IMG/VR virus record: IMGVR_UViG_3300006204_000001
Strand: one strand, 5' to 3'
DNA length: 64,000 bases
Origin: a virus
Taxonomy: Duplodnaviria > Heunggongvirae > Uroviricota > Caudoviricetes
Part shown: piece after piece, positions 27,558 to 50,612 of the stretch
How the letters are laid out: the number at the start of each line of letters is the position of its first letter
Numbering within the stretch: position 1 is the first letter of the stretch
The notes under the pieces: model-generated
Seen by the model: only the letters and a program-made list of their open reading frames with translations
The model's database searches: none
Told to the model about the DNA's origin: nothing
Made by a program: the position numbers and the translations under genes

Positions 27558-28724
27558 ATGAAAAATGTAATGTTGATTGGTGTTGGTAACTGTGGATCTC
27601 AGGTTGCTTGTTTAGGAGAAAAATTATATCCTACCTTATTTGATGCAATGTATATTAATACAAGTAAAACTGATCTTTCTATGGTAACTGCAGAATCTGA
27701 ACTTAAATACAAAATTGGTTCAGATGAAGATGTTGAAGGTTCTGGTAAAAATAGAACTAAGATGCAAGAATATCTTGAGAAAGATATTGAAAAGATCTTA
27801 GGCGATGAAAAACTTGAAGATTCTATAATTGATAAGAGTTATGCATTTATTATTACAAGTGCAGCGGGGGGGACAGGATCTGGTGCTTCAACAATTCTTT
27901 ATGAATTTATGAAAGAAAAATTTCCTGATACATTCTTTATCTTAGTAGGTGTATTACCAAAACTTGATTCAACATCATTAATGGAACATGGTAATACATT
28001 AGAGTTTCTTGATGATCTTTATAGAGTATTAGGAGATAATGTAACATATATGCTATATGATAATGAATCAACTGCAAATATGGCAGATACAGTTGCATTA
28101 GAAACAGTTAACAGAAATATTATTGAGGATATTAGAATTCTTACAGGCATTGATAATCATCCTACACCATATGAATCTATTGATAAAGCAGATATGGAAT
28201 CTATAATTACAACACCAGGAAGATTACTTGTTGCAAGAATTAATAAGAATCTTACAGAAAAGAATCTTGAAGATAATAATATTGATAATATTGTTATTAA
28301 AGCAATTAAAGATTCTTGCCATGTTGAGACAGATCGTAATAAACATGTTGTTAGATGGGGTATAATCACATATTTTACAAATGAAGTATATCAGCTGTAC
28401 AAATCATCTTTAACTGCAGTAACAGAATTTTTAGGAATACCTAAAGAAAGATTTAATCATAATGCAATTAATAATAAGGATGAATCATTGTCATTTATGT
28501 ATATGATTGCATCCGGTTTGTCACCTATTAATGATAGGGTAAAGAAAATTACATCAAGAGTAGAATCATTACAAAAGACTTTACCATCTGAAGATACTAA
28601 CAAATATATTCTTGGAGAAGGTGTTTCATATGGAATAATGGAAGAAAGAAGAAAACAGGTAAGAAGAGAAGCTGCTCCATCTGAAATTAATAAAAGTTCA
28701 GTATTTAATAAATTTAAGAAATAA
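27558..28724 (+). CDS. tubulin/FtsZ-superfamily GTPase (phage PhuZ/TubZ-like)
   Basis: N-terminal LIGVGNCGSQVA glycine loop and tubulin signature SAAGGTGSGAS (GGGTGSG); RBS TAGGAGGT. Confidence 0.8.
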   Translation: MKNVMLIGVGNCGSQVACLGEKLYPTLFDAMYINTSKTDLSMVTAESELKYKIGSDEDVEGSGKNRTKMQEYLEKDIEKILGDEKLEDSIIDKSYAFIITSAAGGTGSGASTILYEFMKEKFPDTFFILVGVLPKLDSTSLMEHGNTLEFLDDLYRVLGDNVTYMLYDNESTANMADTVALETVNRNIIEDIRILTGIDNHPTPYESIDKADMESIITTPGRLLVARINKNLTEKNLEDNNIDNIVIKAIKDSCHVETDRNKHVVRWGIITYFTNEVYQLYKSSLTAVTEFLGIPKERFNHNAINNKDESLSFMYMIASGLSPINDRVKKITSRVESLQKTLPSEDTNKYILGEGVSYGIMEERRKQVRREAAPSEINKSSVFNKFKK

Positions 28725-43590: not shown

Positions 43591-44616
43591 ATGACAAGAA
43601 CAAGAATAATTATTCATATAATTCCATCGAAATATGTTGTAGGTGGTAATATTGATAAATATATACCAAATGCAAAGAATTGGAAAATCAGTTCAGTAGC
43701 TAATATATTTGTAAATGAAGTAGATGGAATGTATCATATTATATTTTATAGTGATATATTTGATCAATTGGAAAAAGATGTATTGATTAACGGCATTATA
43801 TCATTAATTGAGAATAATATTGAAAGACCAAAATTAATATCGATATCATATGATTCGATAATATTAGAAGATGGTGTTAACATGTTAACTGTTCCATGTG
43901 TAAAAAATATTATTGAATTGCAAAATATATTATCTGATGTAATATCAAATAAAGATAAAAGAAAATGGGAATTTGAAATATTACAGAATGTTGTTGATGC
44001 AGCAAATTTTTATGTAAAACATCAAAAGAAATTGAACGAATGGAGAGAAGAACATAAAGATGATAATAAATATAAGAAAAAGATTTCAAATAGAATTTAT
44101 GACAAACCAGAAATACGACAAGAAGAACCACAAAGAAGAAGTATTGATCTTATTACAAAAGCAATAGAAGATATGCAAGATTTTGAAGATGAAGATGATA
44201 GCGTATTTGGTAAAAATAAAAAGAGAAAGAAACGTAAGTCTCTTCGTAGTGATAAAAAGAAACATTATTCTTCTTCAAAATTAATAAAAATTAAAGATGC
44301 TAAAAAATCTTATAATAGACATGGAGTTATTGTATCAAGTAAAAAATCTATTATAGAAAGAGATGAAAAGGTTATCAAAGATTTCTTAAAGGATTTTATT
44401 CCTGGTAATGGATGGAAAAAAGACTTGAGAAAAGATCTTTTAGAAAGATGGATGAGCGTCTTTGTTATTACAAAGAAACAACTTAAAAGGATTGAGAAGA
44501 GGGAAAAAGAACGAAAAGAATCAAATGATAAATATAAAAAGGCAAGAAAAGTAATAAACGTAGCAGGTAGATTAATATCTACACCAATAGATCATTGGAA
44601 TGATCCTAGTAGATAA
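43591..44616 (+). CDS. hypothetical protein with lysine/arginine-rich C-terminal half
   Basis: 341-aa ORF; KKRKKRKSLRSDKKKHYSS and further K-rich stretches; RBS TAGGAGGAAAT. Confidence 0.5.
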   Translation: MTRTRIIIHIIPSKYVVGGNIDKYIPNAKNWKISSVANIFVNEVDGMYHIIFYSDIFDQLEKDVLINGIISLIENNIERPKLISISYDSIILEDGVNMLTVPCVKNIIELQNILSDVISNKDKRKWEFEILQNVVDAANFYVKHQKKLNEWREEHKDDNKYKKKISNRIYDKPEIRQEEPQRRSIDLITKAIEDMQDFEDEDDSVFGKNKKRKKRKSLRSDKKKHYSSSKLIKIKDAKKSYNRHGVIVSSKKSIIERDEKVIKDFLKDFIPGNGWKKDLRKDLLERWMSVFVITKKQLKRIEKREKERKESNDKYKKARKVINVAGRLISTPIDHWNDPSR

Positions 44617-44627
44617 GGAGGAATAAA

Positions 44628-44885
44628 ATGAGCCAAGTAATTGAAAACTTAGAAAAACTTACTAATCCTGATAACTTTCAAAAGTATGTATTAGGATATA
44701 AAAAGAATGGGCAACCAAGAGCAGCTTATGATGTAATAAAAGATGTATATATTGAACCAAAAAAGAAGAAAAAGAAGAAACATGACAAAAATAATCCGTA
44801 TAACACATATTCATTTTATATGAATGCGAAGAAGAAAAAGAAGAAACATAAAAAGAAAAACAAAAAATTCTCTTGGCATATATAA
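44628..44885 (+). CDS. small lysine-rich protein (85 aa) with internal DNA repeat
   Basis: KKKKKKHDKNNPYNTYSFYMNAKKKKKKHKKKNKK; AAGAAGAAAAAGAAGAAACAT repeated twice; RBS AAGGAGGAATAAA. Confidence 0.4.
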   Translation: MSQVIENLEKLTNPDNFQKYVLGYKKNGQPRAAYDVIKDVYIEPKKKKKKKHDKNNPYNTYSFYMNAKKKKKKHKKKNKKFSWHI

Positions 44886-44958
44886 AATGGATATTATAAT
44901 AATAAAGATGGAATAATTATAATTATTCCATCTTTATTTTTTATGGAGGTATTATGTT

Positions 44959-46824
44959 TTGTTAAAAAGTAGTAATCCTACATTGTTGAATGTAACTTAT
45001 ATAAAACCTAATAAAGAAGATGGTACAAAAGAATCTTTTGAAGTAATATATAAAACTGAAACAGGTGAAGTATATAGATCAGAAGAACCACCATTAGCTG
45101 ATATATTTTTCGTGAAACCTGAATATAGAAATTATAATTATAATAAACCTGAAGAACGAATGGAACGCATGGAAAAAGTTCGTGTTCCTATTAGTAAAAT
45201 TCGTTATAGAATTGCTGAAGAAATAGGAGAAGAAGGACAAAAATTTATAAGTCAATGTTGTCAGGAAAAAAATTTCTCTAGGTTAAATGAATTATATGCG
45301 TGGCCATATTCTTATGGAGCTGATTTTCAACCTGAATATTATTTCATGAAGAATTGGTATGAAAAATATGAAATAGGAACTCCAAAAATTACAACGGCAT
45401 TTCTCGATATTGAGTGTGATTCATTAGAGAATGAGATTGATATGGATAATATTTCTGTTACAGCATATTCTCCTGTCAATTGTGCTACAGTAATTTTGGA
45501 TGATACTAAAGAAGCATGGACATTTATACTGAGACCACGTAAACCATCTGAATTAGGTAAAAGCAAAGAAGATTATATTAGAGCATATAATTTATATAAT
45601 AAACAAAAATATGATCATGAAAATTTAATGAATAATATGAATGATTTCATAGATAAACTTCATAAAACTTTTGATGGAAAATATGGTTATATAAATTATC
45701 ATGTGAGGGAATTTTCTGATGAAATTGAATTAATAGCTGATATATTTAGATTAATTAATAAGCGTAAACCAAATTTCTGTTTATGTTGGAATATGAGATT
45801 TGATATTCAGTATCTTTATTATAGATTACAAGCCTTGCATATTAACCCAGCTTCTATAATGTGTCATCCTGACTTTAAGAATAGTAAACCAAAATGCTAT
45901 TTTAAAGTTGATAGATCAACTTATCAATTGGAAAAACAATATGACTACTTCTATTGTAGTTCATATACTATATATATTTGCCAAATGAGAAATTATGCTG
46001 CTATACGTAAATCACAGCATAAATTACGTTCTGTATCTTTGAATGCTATAGCTGATATAGAATTAAAAGATAAAAAAGTAGATTACCCAGAAGAATCTAA
46101 CATGACTGAATTCATGTATAATAATTGGCCTTTATTTATTTTATATAATGTGAAAGATGTATTACTCCAGTTAGGAATTGAACGTAAAACAAAAGATACT
46201 ATGACATATTATATGCGTTCACAAGCGAATCTTACTCCATATAATAAAATATATAGAGAGACACATTTGTTACGAAACGTTCGTGAGCAGTCATTTAATA
46301 AACAAGGATGGGTTCAGGGTAATAATATTAATATCATCCATATGCGTGATGTAGATGAAGTTGAAAAAGCTTTCTATAATAATGATGAAAATGAAGAAGG
46401 TAATGAAAGTTCATTTAAAGGTGCAATAAATGCAGATCCGGTATGGAATGATAGGATAGGCATGAAGATATTAGGTATTAGATCAAATAATATCTTTTCA
46501 AATCCAATGGATTATGATATGGGAGCATTTTATCCATCAATAAAAATTGCATCTAATATGGATCCAATTACATTGTTATATAAAGCATCATTTGTAAATG
46601 AAGAATTTATGAGTGGTGAATTTATCAATAGATCTTTAAATCAACAATATGTAGAAAAAGATAAGAAAGGTAAAACACGTAAATTAGATTTTACTGGTGA
46701 AGCAGTAAACACATATGTTAGTGGTAATATATTAACATTTGGAGTGAATTATCTTAATCAACCATCTATAACAGAAGTTTTGGCTGCTTGCAGAAAGGAA
46801 TGTAAACGAAAAGAATTAGTATAA
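44959..46824 (+). CDS. family-B DNA polymerase, N-terminal fragment (3'-5' exonuclease domain + palm motif A only)
   Basis: Exo I FLDIECDS, Exo II NMRFDIQYLYY, Exo III YNVKDVLL, motif A DYDMGAFYPSI; no motif B/C (KxxxNSxYG / YGDTDS) before stop; probable TTG start 9 nt after GGAGGT. Confidence 0.6.
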   Translation: MLKSSNPTLLNVTYIKPNKEDGTKESFEVIYKTETGEVYRSEEPPLADIFFVKPEYRNYNYNKPEERMERMEKVRVPISKIRYRIAEEIGEEGQKFISQCCQEKNFSRLNELYAWPYSYGADFQPEYYFMKNWYEKYEIGTPKITTAFLDIECDSLENEIDMDNISVTAYSPVNCATVILDDTKEAWTFILRPRKPSELGKSKEDYIRAYNLYNKQKYDHENLMNNMNDFIDKLHKTFDGKYGYINYHVREFSDEIELIADIFRLINKRKPNFCLCWNMRFDIQYLYYRLQALHINPASIMCHPDFKNSKPKCYFKVDRSTYQLEKQYDYFYCSSYTIYICQMRNYAAIRKSQHKLRSVSLNAIADIELKDKKVDYPEESNMTEFMYNNWPLFILYNVKDVLLQLGIERKTKDTMTYYMRSQANLTPYNKIYRETHLLRNVREQSFNKQGWVQGNNINIIHMRDVDEVEKAFYNNDENEEGNESSFKGAINADPVWNDRIGMKILGIRSNNIFSNPMDYDMGAFYPSIKIASNMDPITLLYKASFVNEEFMSGEFINRSLNQQYVEKDKKGKTRKLDFTGEAVNTYVSGNILTFGVNYLNQPSITEVLAACRKECKRKELV

Positions 46825-46924: not shown

Positions 46925-48484
46925 ATGGCAAAATATCAAGATGATGTATATGACCATTTAAAATCTGATATTGATAAAATTAGAGTAAGATTTAGGCAAT
47001 ATATATCATATTCAAATGAACAAGGAGCAAAGTCTGTAGTAGACGAGATAATTTATAATGCTCTTGATGAATGTAAGAATCCAAGATCTCCAGGTGATAC
47101 TATTCATATTGTAATGGATGATAGAGATGGATTTATTACTGTGACAGATAATGGTAGAGGTATACCTACTAATTTATTAGAGGAATTATTTACATCATTA
47201 AATATGGGATCTAATATTAATACATCAAATAAATCAGATTTAAAAGTAGAAATATTGGGTCAAAATGGTACTGGAACACTTGCTATATGTGGTTTAGCAG
47301 AACATGTAGAGATTACTTCATATAGAGGTGGTACAGAAAATATTAGTAAGACATTAATATTTGAAGAAGGAAAAAAGATCCATGAAGAAGAGCATAAATG
47401 TGATAAAAATAAACATGGATTATGTATTAAATATAAACCTTCTAAAGTCATGGGTAAAAATACTAAAATAGTTTGGGATCCAGTCCATAAAGGATTATTA
47501 GATTTACAGTATTTAAATCATAATAGAATAAAGATAGATTCTGTTCATTATGATAAAAATGGAGATTATACTGAAGAGAAATATAAGATCTTAAATTTTG
47601 ATGATATTTTATTACGTAATGATCCTGAGTCAATTACAAGTAGTAAAATATTGATCAATATTAAAGATGATAATATATTAGAAGAATTTGAAGATATGTC
47701 TGTAAAAAGATTTTTAGATATGGATATAGCATTTGCATATGTAAATAAGTTAAATCCATATATAGATAGTTTTTCAAATTCAAACAATACGGTTGATAAT
47801 GGCGATCATTTAGATGGTGCATTGGAAGCTATTTGTAGATATTTTCAATTAGCAACAAAGAATATGCTATCAGAGAAAGAAAAAGAATCTCTTGATATCA
47901 AATGGGATGATGTTAAAACAGGATTATCTATAGTAGTATCTTTACGTACTGATTATGAAAGATTATATACTGGACAGACTAAACATAAAGTTGTTAATGG
48001 AGATATTAGAAAGATTATAATTAATCTTACAATAGAGGCGTTAACATCATATTTTAGTAAGAATAATAGTCAGTTAAAAGAATTATGCATGATAGTAAAG
48101 ATGAATGCAAAAGTACGTCGAGAAGGTGATAAAGTACGTACAGCAGTAATCAAAAATACAATAACTAATTGGTCATCATACAAGATGAAAAATTATGATC
48201 CGTGTACAAGAAAAGGAGTTAAGGAATATAAAGAAATATTTATTATTGAGGGAGATAGTGCAAAAGGTAGTTTAAAGAATGCTAGATTTCCTGAATTTCA
48301 AGCACTATTTAGTATACGTGGCGTTAGCTTGAATGTTTTCAAAGCAACTATAGATCAAATATTTGGTCCTAAAGGTAATAAAGAATTTACTGATTTAGTA
48401 ACTATATTAGGATGTAATGTAGGACCTAAATTCGATTTAAGTAAACTTCAGTTTAGTAAGATTATTATAGCATCAGATGCGGAT
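46925..48484 (+). CDS. type II DNA topoisomerase ATPase subunit (GyrB / T4 gp39-like), exon 1
   Basis: GHKL ATPase motifs EIIYNALDE, DNGRGIP; TOPRIM EIFIIEGDSAKGS .. IIIASDAD, then the ORF reads KLSMSA-stop in the intron. Confidence 0.8.
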
Positions 48485-49691
48485 AAATTATCTATGTCCG
48501 CTTAAAATTCTTTTAATTGCTGGGAGTTCTTGTTAAGTTAATTCAACCGCGGTATTATAGTAATATAATATGCAGCATATATCATAATGGATATAGGATG
48601 GTAAAATCGAATTAAATAGAGATAATCAGCAAATAATTATATTGATTCTAATTTTAATTATAAATTACTAAAGAAAGGAGGTATATAATAATATGAAATA
48701 TAATAAATCTATGTTAAATAATGCATATAATGATTTATTACAAGAAAAAGATATTAGATCTATGGAATTATTTGATAAACATTATTGTGAATTATCAATA
48801 GCAGAAATAGATAAATTAGAAAAATATATGTATGATTTATCTAATCCTATATGGAAACCTATAATGATAGATGGTAAAGATAGTGGATATAAGATTAGTA
48901 ATATAGGTACAGCAGTTGATTCAAATAATAATGAATTAAAATATTATCAAAATTCATCTGGTTATTTAGTTATCTGGATTCATATAAAAGGTAAACGTAA
49001 TAATGTACCTAAATCTATTCATAGATTAGTAGCAGAATCATTTATTCCTAATCCTGATAATAAATCAGAAGTGAATCATATTAATTGCAAACAAAATATG
49101 AATTGGGTTGGAAATCTTGAATGGGTAACGCATGAAGAAAATATACGATATATGATAAATTGTGGTAATCAAGTTATAGGAATGAATCATAAAAACTCTA
49201 AGTTTACTGATGAACAAATACATTTAGTTTGTAAAATGCTTGAAAATCCTAATAATGATATTAAAACTATTTCAGAAAAAACTAAAGTATCACTTAGAAC
49301 TATTCAAAATATAAGATTTTATAATGGGTGGAATCATATAAGTGGATTATATAATATAAATAGATCTAAGTATGTTAAAGGTCCTAAATTTAGTTATGTT
49401 TCTAAAATAATATCCGATATGGTTAATAACGGAAAAACAAATTCTGAAATACGAAATAAATTGCATGAATTAGGTTTAGATTTAAATATAACAAGTAAGA
49501 GTATTAGTGATAGAATATATCATATACGAAAATTAGAATCAAATAAAACTTCATCGACTATCGAAAAGCTATGATATAGGATTATTAACCATATCAATAT
49601 AGTTAGTAGAGTATACTTATAATAGTAGAAATGAAGGACATTATGAAGATATAGTCACAACATTTATAGAAATATAAAGATAAGATAATTG
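48485..49691 (+). mobile_element. putative group I intron (about 1.2 kb) carrying an HNH homing endonuclease ORF
   Basis: 5' exon ends GCGGAU; intron nt 12-17 GUCCGC can form P1 with a U.G wobble at the splice site; intron ends in G; splicing joins ..IIIASDAD to VDGLFIRSLLMAFFFR, recreating the conserved TOPRIM DxDxDG and GyrB continuation. Confidence 0.65.
48693..49574 (+). CDS. HNH homing endonuclease (intron-encoded)
   Basis: HRLVAESFIPNPDNKSEVNHINCKQNMNWVGNLEWVTHEEN = HNH_3-type motif; RBS AAAGGAGGT. Confidence 0.8.
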   Translation: MKYNKSMLNNAYNDLLQEKDIRSMELFDKHYCELSIAEIDKLEKYMYDLSNPIWKPIMIDGKDSGYKISNIGTAVDSNNNELKYYQNSSGYLVIWIHIKGKRNNVPKSIHRLVAESFIPNPDNKSEVNHINCKQNMNWVGNLEWVTHEENIRYMINCGNQVIGMNHKNSKFTDEQIHLVCKMLENPNNDIKTISEKTKVSLRTIQNIRFYNGWNHISGLYNINRSKYVKGPKFSYVSKIISDMVNNGKTNSEIRNKLHELGLDLNITSKSISDRIYHIRKLESNKTSSTIEKL

Positions 49692-50612
49692 GTGGATGGA
49701 TTATTTATTAGAAGTCTACTTATGGCATTCTTCTTTAGAGTATTACCAGAAATTATTTTGGATGGTAGATTATATATAGCAGAACCACCTCTATATAGAG
49801 TTGATAATCCAAAAGATCCATTTGTAATTAATAAAGAAGATTATAACAATCGATATGTAAAAGAGTGTATGAAATATTATCAGATAGGATATCCTATTAT
49901 AGATAATGGAGTAATAGTTGACGTTAATATTTTAAATAAAAATGATATTAAAGAATTATTATCTGATACATCATCTTATGTTAAAGACATAGAATTATTA
50001 GCTAATCATTATAGGATTAATGAAAGATTATTTGAGATAATAATTGAAGAAGTAGCATTAATGAATATCGATGTCAATTTATGTGCAGATATACAGAAGG
50101 ATATTATTGATAAAATCAATATACAACATCTTGTGACAAGAATACAAGCAGAATTTCCAGAAGTATATTATGATGACAAATTTAAGTTAATACGAGGATC
50201 AATAAATACTGTTAGACAATTAATTGAATTATCACCTAACATAATTAAGAAGTCTAAAGTAATAATTAATTATATTATAAAATGGAAAACTGCACAGACT
50301 AAATTAGTATTAAGAGATAATAAAACAAAAGCAGAAAGATTATTATCATTATTAGAATTATTAAAAGTTTTAAGAAAATATCAACCTGATATCAAGCATC
50401 GTTTTAAAGGTTTAGGCGAGAATGATACAGATGATATACGAAAGACTATTATGGATCCTAATACTAGATCACTTATAAAAGTAAATATAAGTGATATAGA
50501 AAATGATGAAAAAATCTTTCAGATGTTAAGGGGTGGAACTGCACAAAATGCATTAGATAGAAAAAATATGATGCATAATTATAGTATACCAGTCGAGTTA
50601 ATTGATACGTAA
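49692..50612 (+). CDS. type II DNA topoisomerase ATPase subunit, exon 2
   Basis: VDGLFIRSLLMAFFFRVLPEIILDGRLYIAEPPLYRV ~ GyrB [37 protein letters not shown]. Confidence 0.8.
   Translation: MDGLFIRSLLMAFFFRVLPEIILDGRLYIAEPPLYRVDNPKDPFVINKEDYNNRYVKECMKYYQIGYPIIDNGVIVDVNILNKNDIKELLSDTSSYVKDIELLANHYRINERLFEIIIEEVALMNIDVNLCADIQKDIIDKINIQHLVTRIQAEFPEVYYDDKFKLIRGSINTVRQLIELSPNIIKKSKVIINYIIKWKTAQTKLVLRDNKTKAERLLSLLELLKVLRKYQPDIKHRFKGLGENDTDDIRKTIMDPNTRSLIKVNISDIENDEKIFQMLRGGTAQNALDRKNMMHNYSIPVELIDT

Follow-up and report, generated by a model that had tools for sequence, protein, structure and literature searches.

The question raised by this locus is whether a phage topoisomerase gene, whose reading frame breaks off inside its catalytic domain and is resumed more than one kilobase downstream, produces one protein or two. 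The window analysed here is a stretch of 64,000 nt from a virus of the Caudoviricetes (IMG/VR record IMGVR_UViG_3300006204_000001), and the parts of the locus described below lie on its plus strand. In databases the locus is divided into gene calls of 526, 293 and 296 aa, and the two topoisomerase parts are catalogued as P0242 and P0243. The interpretation that we consider highly probable is that the gene for the B subunit is transcribed as one RNA, from which a group I intron of 1,207 nt (48485-49691) excises itself. The recognition of this intron reunites two or three seemingly unrelated gene calls into one topoisomerase subunit of 826 aa.

Exon 1 (46925-48484) is preceded by the Shine-Dalgarno (SD) sequence GGAAGGAG and comprises 520 codons of a type IIA topoisomerase B subunit (GyrB/ParE-like): the GHKL ATPase, the transducer and the start of the Toprim domain, identified by Pfam (HATPase_c, DNA_gyraseB, Toprim) and by alignment with GyrB/ParE chains of the PDB. 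As an earlier note on this DNA had described, its open reading frame (46925-48505) reads ...IIIASDAD, passes through six intron codons (KLSMSA) and ends at a TAA stop (48503-48505). Exon 2 (49692-50612; 306 codons and the stop) starts with GTG GAT GGA and encodes VDGLFIRSLL..., that is, the remainder of Toprim and the GyrB C-terminal tail; it matches Pfam DNA_gyraseB_C, and the PDB alignments cross the junction. When the exons are joined at 48484|49692, giving GATGCGGAT|GTGGATGG, the resulting protein of 826 aa is colinear with GyrB/ParE through DADVDG (best E = 2e-54), and the PDB chains cover residues 3-573 and 744-803 of this joined query. Over both exons the domain order is that of a type IIA topoisomerase B subunit by Pfam (GHKL ATPase, transducer, Toprim with DxDxDG, C-terminal tail), and about 100 uninterrupted homologues are 820-830 aa long.

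The insertion point, between DAD and VDG of the Toprim DxDxDG motif, is fixed by alleles without the insert. Two loci (L001 and L139), with 97.5-99.8% nucleotide identity to the window, lack exactly the 1,207 nt, with breakpoints at 48484 and 49692, and the agreement of L001 with the window is complete over about 350 nt to either side of the junction. Because the flanking bases differ at each boundary, the position of the junction is unambiguous. In the sister genomes without the insert, 99.4-99.8% identical in DNA, the gene encodes an uninterrupted protein of 826 aa (P0241; 14 contigs, the longest of 289 kb), which agrees with the predicted spliced product at 100% of its residues. The intron-containing allele is present with the same sequence in at least six independent samples and occurs on 12 contigs; one further locus (L132) carries a rearranged or frameshifted version. 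At the level of sequence, the observation of a split gene is confirmed far beyond chance.

The two ends of the insert have the features expected for group I splice sites. P1 (48479-48501) is formed by the last six bases of exon 1, GCGGAU (48479-48484), and the guide sequence GUCCGC (48496-48501), with a wobble pair U48484·G48496 at the 5' splice site; RNAalifold and the minimum-free-energy (MFE) fold predict it as well, and it is paired 6/6 in all six complete introns at this site. The adjacent guide AUCUAU (48490-48495) pairs 6/6 with the start of exon 2, GUGGAU (49692-49697), as P10, and a terminal G (omega-G, 49691) marks the 3' splice site, as it does in all six same-site introns. The T at 48484, the P1 of six base pairs with its U·G and the G at 49691 had all been pointed out before and were found again here. 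Both helices follow synonymous substitutions in the two codons, for Ala and Val, that border the splice sites. In one relative (L037) the exon reads GCC instead of GCG and the guide has changed from C to G in a compensatory way, and the P10 guide base that faces the Val wobble position varies among relatives as U·G (GUG), A-U (GUU) or U-A (GUA). The TAA stop of the exon 1 frame lies just 3' of this guide sequence.

The catalytic core can be traced along the insert, where each of the classical elements (P, Q, R and S) is identifiable. The 5' strand of P3, UUCUUU (48508-48513), is paired 6/6 with GAAGGA (49633-49638), and in relatives these columns read CUUCUU/GGGAAG, CUCUUU/GGAGAG, UCUCUU/AGGAGA and CCGCUC/GGGCGG. 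The P4-P5 domain (48517-48632), which has an MFE fold with z = -1.96 and is supported by covariation, consists of P4 (UUGCUGG/UCAGCAA, 48517-48523/48626-48632, corresponding to the P and Q elements), P5 (48528-48531/48619-48622), P5a (48538-48544/48609-48615), P5b with a GUAA loop (48553-48570), P5c (48578-48595) and an A-rich return strand, GGAUGGUAAAAUC. There is no P2 in this intron, and a three-way extension resembling P5abc is present. P6 is a perfect helix of 14 bp between UUGAUUCUAAUUUU (48642-48655) and AAAAUUAGAAUCAA (49529-49542), the latter lying within the open reading frame that the helix encloses; pairing of this length was reached in only 7 of 2,000 shuffles, and in five relatives (L004, L006, L037, L134 and L137) the P6 sequence is wholly different yet perfectly paired.

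In the 3' part, the P7 strand GACUAU (49556-49561), belonging to the R element CGACUAUCGAAAA, pairs with AUAGUC (49651-49656). P7 is invariant across all the same-site introns and, because of this, yields no covariation signal, but its 3' strand falls within the Rfam match described below. Between the P7 strands, reading of the sequence and comparison with relatives placed a P7.1 hairpin (49569-49602) and a small P7.2 hairpin (49614-49627), separated by a conserved AGUAGAG motif (49605-49611). Insertions of the P7.1/P7.2 kind are typical of subgroup IA, and the intron is provisionally described as IA-like, with its reading frame in the P6 loop. After the 3' strand of P3 comes a vestigial P8, CAUUAUG (49639-49645; no more than 2 bp and a UUA loop), and then J8/7 (AAGAU) with the P7 3' strand, in a module that extends over 49644-49678 and ends with P9 (UUUAUA-GAAA-UAUAAA, 49663-49678), closed by a GAAA loop. 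Three other pairings were considered and discarded. A local hairpin at 48633-48661, obtained when the 5' fragment is folded alone, gave way to the long-range P6 of 14 bp, which is backed by the relatives; a pairing between the 5' strands of P3 and P4 proposed by RNAalifold was rejected, as both strands co-vary with distant partners instead; and the placement of the P3 3' strand inside the P7.2 loop, as Rfam has it in the compact family member L081, was not applied to the introns at this site, for which the covariation of P3 was decisive.

Introns homologous to this one occupy the same codon junction in related phages, and their comparison showed compensatory changes in P1, P10, P3, P4, P5a-c and P6. 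In the 5' half of seven same-site introns, 95% of the cells are paired, versus 30-45% in slid controls, and 21 of the 38 pairs present compensatory changes, a value that none of 500 shuffles equalled; RNAalifold independently recovered P1 and P5a-c. The check with the Rfam group I model that had been suggested gave a divided result. No match to RF00028 reached the gathering score (50 bits) anywhere in the window, but J8/7, the P7 3' strand and P9 were recognised locally (49644-49677, model positions 219-251) with 24.1 bits and E = 0.0013. In this intron the model is interrupted by the reading frame of 880 nt and by the IA-type insertions; same-site relatives without the reading frame are also below the threshold, and L081 reaches 87.9 bits. 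The presence of P1, P10, P3, P4-P6, P7, P9 and the terminal G supports the group I reading of the earlier note, which had named the lack of a P3-P7-P9 core, together with the detection of unspliced RNA only, as grounds for abandoning it; P3, P7 and P9 were all located.

The reading frame inside the intron (48693-49574, 293 aa) encodes an HNH homing endonuclease of the I-HmuI type and has its own ribosome binding site, AAGGAGG (48675-48681), in agreement with what had been reported from the sequence. It matches the HNH endonuclease family phrog_59 (E = 1.9e-30) and the I-HmuI structure 1U3E (E = 6e-5, residues 54-172, including VNH...NLEWVTHEEN); with Pfam HNH_3 it obtains 21.9 bits, under the cutoff of 24.8. 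The protein is identical on 12 contigs. Among the same-site introns, the reading frame is of full length in the window, is cut by the contig end in L003, is reduced in L004 to a C-terminal remnant of 96 aa (53% identical) and is absent from L006, L037, L134 and L137. As expected, this series of full, truncated and absent reading frames fits the homing cycle, and the junction of the intron-less alleles L001 and L139, GCATCAGATGCGGAT|GTGGATGGATTATTT, is the candidate target of the enzyme. The 3' end of the reading frame overlaps the 3' strand of P6, J6/7, the 5' strand of P7 and the start of P7.1. Since, in addition, the frame of exon 1 crosses the guide sequence, translation could compete with folding of the RNA.

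Taken as a mechanism, these elements would act as follows. The guide (48490-48501) would hold the last six bases of exon 1 in P1, with the U·G pair at the cleavage site, and the first six bases of exon 2 in P10, while the P4-P6 and P3-P7 domains would constitute the catalytic core and the 14-bp P6, closing round the looped-out reading frame, would unite both halves of the ribozyme. Splicing would open with a guanosine-initiated transesterification at 48484|48485; an attack at the terminal G (49691) would then ligate the exons in frame and restore the metal-binding motif DADVDG of Toprim, giving the enzyme of 826 aa. Alleles lacking the intron, in co-infecting phages, are presumably nicked or cut by the HNH endonuclease encoded in the P6 loop, and their repair would copy the intron in (homing). 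The boundaries, the fold with its covariation and the presence or absence of the insert in near-identical genomes are shown by the analysis; from them we infer that the RNA is catalytic, that it is spliced in vivo and that the endonuclease is active.

A different outcome would be a gene permanently split by a homing-endonuclease cassette, as genes 39/60 of T4 are, with halves translated apart and assembled with no RNA splicing. The phage T4 and its relatives do tolerate a split of the large topoisomerase II subunit inside Toprim by the HNH element MobA (bioRxiv 2022.08.31.505936), the databases list the halves as separate proteins, and at the junction there are in-frame TTG (49689) and GTG (49692) codons from which a second half of about 307 aa, to accompany the first of 526 aa, could be started. 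Nevertheless, exon 2 is not preceded by an SD sequence, which is found before 34 of the 42 other reading frames of the window (81%), and this argues against a two-subunit enzyme of the T4 kind. Moreover, the TTG is part of the conserved 3' end of the intron (AAUUG), reads ACG in L037, and a start codon is missing altogether from the junction of some relatives. The extension peptides, C- or N-terminal, that all MobA splits keep are also absent, exon 1 gaining six residues only, and a split at the DNA level would not select for a full group I fold in which P1 and P10 co-vary with wobble positions of the exons. We therefore judge a permanent split to be very improbable. The removal of the insert at the protein level, as an intein or other element, finds some background support, given that inteins favour conserved catalytic motifs, DxDxDG being one of them. 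Gut jumbo phages do carry inteins (PMC12880540). The insert, however, does not form an open frame running on from the exons, owing to the stop after six codons, its reading frame has its own ribosome binding site, and Pfam found no Hint or intein domain; this reading is refuted by the reading frames, and its probability is practically nil.

It could also be that the intron is in decay and has lost splicing through the collapse of P8, in which case this strain would have a topoisomerase pseudogene, or else its contigs would derive from defective genomes. The P8 of 7 nt, compared with hairpins of 5-10 bp in same-site relatives, the Rfam score below the threshold and the disturbed locus of L132 would be in line with this. 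On the other side, all the other helices are intact in the window, as are the exon frames and the HNH frame, and the protein encoded by the exons is precisely that of intron-less strains. Identical copies of the intron come from at least six samples, 289-kb contigs included, and at least six other members of the family have an equally short stub (C-NNN-G after the P3 3' strand; L081, L021, L038, L034 and L102 among them), including the one that scores well above the Rfam threshold. Loss of splicing is, in our estimation, improbable, and a self-excising intron continues to be the preferred reading. Even so, the P8 stub could impair folding. A count of P8 stems across the intron family with a simple script gave no discrimination, and a literature search for group I introns without P8 returned only irrelevant papers. 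That the window intron and at least six other family members, in which a stub of 5-7 nt takes the place of P8, are, if spliced, natural group I ribozymes working essentially without P8 is a tentative proposal that we hold to be rather unlikely; the P5abc-like extension, absent in simpler relatives, might compensate for the loss in the window intron. If true, it would shift ideas on the minimal group I core.

Several known systems resemble this locus in part. The T4 introns of td, nrdB and nrdD (sunY) belong to subgroup IA2 and, like the window intron, have P7.1/P7.2 insertions and a looped-out endonuclease gene; their upstream frame ends early in the intron and their presence varies among close relatives, as is the case here. 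They encode GIY-YIG or other endonucleases, unlike the HNH enzyme of the window, whose intron differs from them in the absence of P2, the P5abc-like three-way extension and the vestigial P8. The DNA polymerase introns of the Bacillus phages SPO1 and SP82, with I-HmuI and I-HmuII, are also group I introns in an essential replication gene with an HNH enzyme of the same family, and the window protein matches the I-HmuI structure across its N-terminal DNA-binding and HNH region. The host genes differ (topoisomerase II B subunit versus DNA polymerase), as do the endonucleases in length (293 versus 174 aa), and outside the HNH core and the J8/7-P7-P9 module no nucleotide similarity to the SPO1/SP82 introns was detectable.

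The T4 MobA/gene 60 cassette is likewise an HNH element of about 1.1-1.2 kb in the Toprim region of a phage topoisomerase II, near the metal-binding motif. MobA is free-standing, and its system involves two translated subunits, extension peptides and a translational bypass of 50 nt (bioRxiv 2022.08.31.505936). There the gene stays split and the insertion lies about 45 codons upstream of the DAD|VDG site, whereas in the window the ribozyme is predicted to restore the frame at the RNA level; an SD-led start of the downstream half and the other features described for MobA splits, extension peptides and bypass, are absent at the window locus. In gut jumbo (Jug) phages, as excerpts of PMC12880540 report, group I introns are frequent, many have HNH genes and interrupt essential genes, and about half of those tested have metatranscriptome support for splicing; in the same excerpts topoisomerase IV is listed as a conserved single-copy core gene and is not named among the interrupted ones. 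Group I introns also occur in PhiPA3, and an intron endonuclease serves competition between phages (PMC11620839). The lineage of the window phage is another one, with genomes of about 289 kb, 25% G+C and at most 30% protein identity to any catalogued phage.

Among catalogued phages the locus has no close relative: it drew no megablast match, a sensitive blastn search with the intron reached the HNH core alone, and the intron with its reading frame deleted matched only in the J8/7-P9 module. A second intron was considered in the neighbouring PolB region (43591-44616 and 44959-46824), where a reading frame of 341 aa showed no PolB signal, and was rejected, as the gap holds a small Lys-rich reading frame, a terminator-like hairpin and the ribosome binding site of a TTG start. 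The window intron is a well-supported but ordinary case of a known kind of selfish element, the mobile group I intron with an HNH gene, and leaves current concepts unchanged. Its near-identical genomes with and without the intron, and relatives whose endonuclease genes at the same codon junction are full, truncated or missing, make a clean data set for studying how introns home and decay in jumbo phages that are uncultured. The coding sequence of the Toprim DxDxDG motif appears as a recurrent target, of a group I intron here and of the MobA/gene 60 cassette in T4, and the topoisomerase gene family contains at least four intron sites.

The element at 48485-49691 of the window (1,207 nt, + strand) is a mobile group I intron of IA-like type with an I-HmuI-type HNH homing endonuclease; the topoisomerase II B-subunit gene that it interrupts, within the Toprim DxDxDG motif, belongs to a jumbo phage. 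The ORF at 46925-48505 encodes, according to Pfam, a GHKL ATPase, the transducer domain of GyrB and the start of a Toprim domain, and its frame runs through ...IIIASDAD into six further codons (KLSMSA) and a TAA. The downstream ORF, called from a TTG at 49689, reads M-VDGLFIRSLL... and contains the GyrB C-terminal domain (Pfam). When 48484 (U) is joined to 49692, which follows the last intron base (G49691), an 826-aa protein is obtained, and GyrB/ParE structures align with it unbroken through DADVDG (E down to 2e-54). The earlier note had proposed this colinearity, with exons at 46925-48484 and 49692-50612, and all of its coordinates proved correct when reading frames, boundary bases and junction were checked.

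A search with the spliced protein retrieves uninterrupted homologues, about 100 in number and 820-830 aa long, together with a set of 517-539 aa proteins ending at the end of exon 1. In two contigs (L001 and L139), whose DNA is 97.5-99.8% identical to the window, exactly 48485-49691 is missing: the alignments stop at 48484 and restart at 49692, and this junction is unambiguous because the bases on either side of each boundary differ. If these contigs are DNA-derived they represent intron-less alleles, and if they are RNA-derived they would be direct evidence of splicing. The database protein of the uninterrupted allele (P0241) matches the predicted product of splicing with 100% identity and is found on 14 contigs, 6 of them longer than 200 kb; the intron-containing allele is found on 12 contigs from at least 6 samples, and the intron is identical wherever a contig covers it. 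Since near-identical contigs occur with and without it, the intron is a presence/absence polymorphism inside one phage species.

Between the gene halves, the 293-aa ORF described before was found at 48693-49574, preceded by an AAGGAGG ribosome-binding site. Its product matches the HNH endonuclease family phrog_59 (E = 1.9e-30) and the structure of I-HmuI (E = 6e-5), an endonuclease encoded by an intron of Bacillus phage SPO1; the Pfam HNH_3 score is slightly below cutoff. At the same codon junction, all that is left of the ORF in the L004 intron is a remnant of 96 aa from the C-terminal half (53% identity), and the introns of L006, L037, L134 and L137 (255-508 nt) have no ORF. Full ORF, remnant, ORF-less and intron-less alleles line up as in textbooks: invasion, decay of the endonuclease, then loss. 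The intron is counted as one of a known kind because large phages often carry such introns, many of those in gut jumbo phages being validated by metatranscriptomes (PMC12880540).

The RNA fold begins with P1, in which intron nucleotides 12-17 (GUCCGC, 48496-48501) pair with the end of exon 1 (GCGGAU, 48479-48484), as claimed before, with a U·G pair marking the splice site; P10 is formed by the guide AUCUAU (48490-48495) and GUGGAU of exon 2. P2 is absent from this fold. P3 joins UUCUUU (48508-48513) to GAAGGA (49633-49638), and P4 (UUGCUGG/UCAGCAA) corresponds to the classical P and Q elements. A three-way P5 extension (48538-48615) comprises P5a, P5b with a GUAA (GNRA) loop, P5c and an A-rich return strand, GGAUGGUAAAAUC. 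P6 (48642-48655/49529-49542) is a perfect 14-bp helix enclosing the ORF, a length matched by only 7 of 2,000 shuffles. P7, equivalent to the R and S elements, is formed by GACUAU (49556-49561), which falls within the final codons of the ORF, and AUAGUC (49651-49656). As in subgroup IA, two hairpins, P7.1 and P7.2, separate P7 from P3'; P9 is UUUAUA-GAAA-UAUAAA. The minimum free energy fold of the 5' 190 nt alone gives P1, P4, P5 and P5a-c (z = -1.96). The Rfam search suggested in the earlier note gave partial support: the group I model matches J8/7-P7'-P9 at 49644-49677 (24 bits, E = 0.0013) below its gathering score, as might be expected with an 880-nt ORF and IA-type insertions in the way. 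This model also fails to find the ORF-less same-site relatives; in L081 (7814-8035), a compact member of this intron family scores 87.9 bits on RF00028.

Homologous introns occupy the DAD|VDG junction in L003-L007, L037, L134 and L137/L138. When seven 5' halves were aligned with MAFFT, 95% of cells were paired in the proposed structure; sliding the partners by 1-3 columns left 30-45% paired. Of 38 pairs, 21 show compensatory double changes (0 of 500 shuffles as good), and RNAalifold independently recovers P1 and P5a-c. The P5abc-like extension, with strong covariation support, is present in the window and L003-L007 and altered in L137; L037 and L134 have a simple P5 hairpin instead. Long-range strands were tabulated over six complete same-site introns. 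P6 is fully paired in all six by unrelated sequences, and the same columns give P3 as UUCUUU/GAAGGA, CUUCUU/GGGAAG, CUCUUU/GGAGAG, UCUCUU/AGGAGA and CCGCUC/GGGCGG. The fold places P3, P7 and P9, the core on which the group I assignment had been made to depend, within the insert; with the covariation and the intron-less alleles, it bears out the earlier reading of a group I intron with an HNH endonuclease in a GyrB-like gene.

An intein is ruled out by the reading frames. A T4-like enzyme of two separately translated subunits has a real precedent, as MobA divides T4 Topo2L within Toprim (bioRxiv 2022.08.31.505936). However, a Shine-Dalgarno motif, which 34 of 42 window ORFs possess, is missing for exon 2, whose in-frame TTG is no more than the conserved end of the intron, AAUUG (ACG in L037), and extension peptides are absent. 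Besides, in L037 a synonymous change of the Ala codon from GCG to GCC is matched by C to G in the guide, and the guide base facing the Val wobble is U (GUG), A (GUU) or U (GUA) among relatives. Selection for pairing of the insert with the two exons is expected under RNA splicing and not under a gene split at the DNA level.

The more serious doubt is that this group I intron could be dead through loss of P8, since only seven bases (CAUUAUG) separate P3' from J8/7, versus hairpins of 5-10 bp in same-site relatives. An assembly error was rejected, the sequence being the same in independent samples. P3' followed only by C-NNN-G is also seen in other introns of the family, in L081, L021 (two introns), L038, L034 and L102, so that a P8 stub is a recurrent natural state, though one that may lower activity; no literature was found on compact group I introns without a P8 hairpin. 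The window intron is considered competent to splice with high, though not complete, confidence.

Some contigs are irregular. L132 (JGI 3300006203, 9 kb) is 99.6% identical to the window until 49103, diverges halfway through the HNH gene, and shows an exon 1 frameshift and a second intron-5'-like segment, while exon 2 is missing from its expected place after the HNH gene; it is the outcome of recombination, of a deletion or of chimeric assembly. Three independent Logan assemblies (L128, L129, L131) all end at 49651, in the conserved J8/7-P7 motif, possibly due to a repeat that confuses assemblers.

The topoisomerase genes of relatives (L037, L134, L135/L136, L137/L138, L006, L090, L084) have introns at three further positions (residues 444/445, ~467 and ~760/761), up to three per gene; that of the window has only the 520/521 intron. 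In L002, a strain whose topoisomerase exon 1 is 96% identical, positions 1-105 are the 3' end of a further group I intron (P8, GAAGAUAUAGUC, P9, ...CUG|) within the DNA polymerase gene at ...YNVKD|VLLQLG; the equivalent window position (46158|46159, PolB) has no intron.

The window is AT-rich (G+C ~25%) with phage-like gene content, coding for a family B DNA polymerase, a tubulin/FtsZ homologue, helicases and two ORFs of ~2,750 aa. The same locus is found, identical, on 289-kb metagenomic contigs, and the best protein match of the topoisomerase among catalogued phages is ~30% (AR9/PBS1); the source is therefore an uncultured jumbo phage. Some jumbo phages have tubulin/FtsZ-family GTPase genes, and the one in the window lies at 27558-28724 (Pfam Tubulin, E = 7e-13), near ORFs of 2,738 and 2,790 aa, the latter with a Peptidase_M23 domain. 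At 44629-44940, directly before the TTG-initiated PolB gene, a small ORF very rich in Lys precedes a strong hairpin resembling a terminator (GATGGAATAATTATAATTATTCCATC and a run of T).
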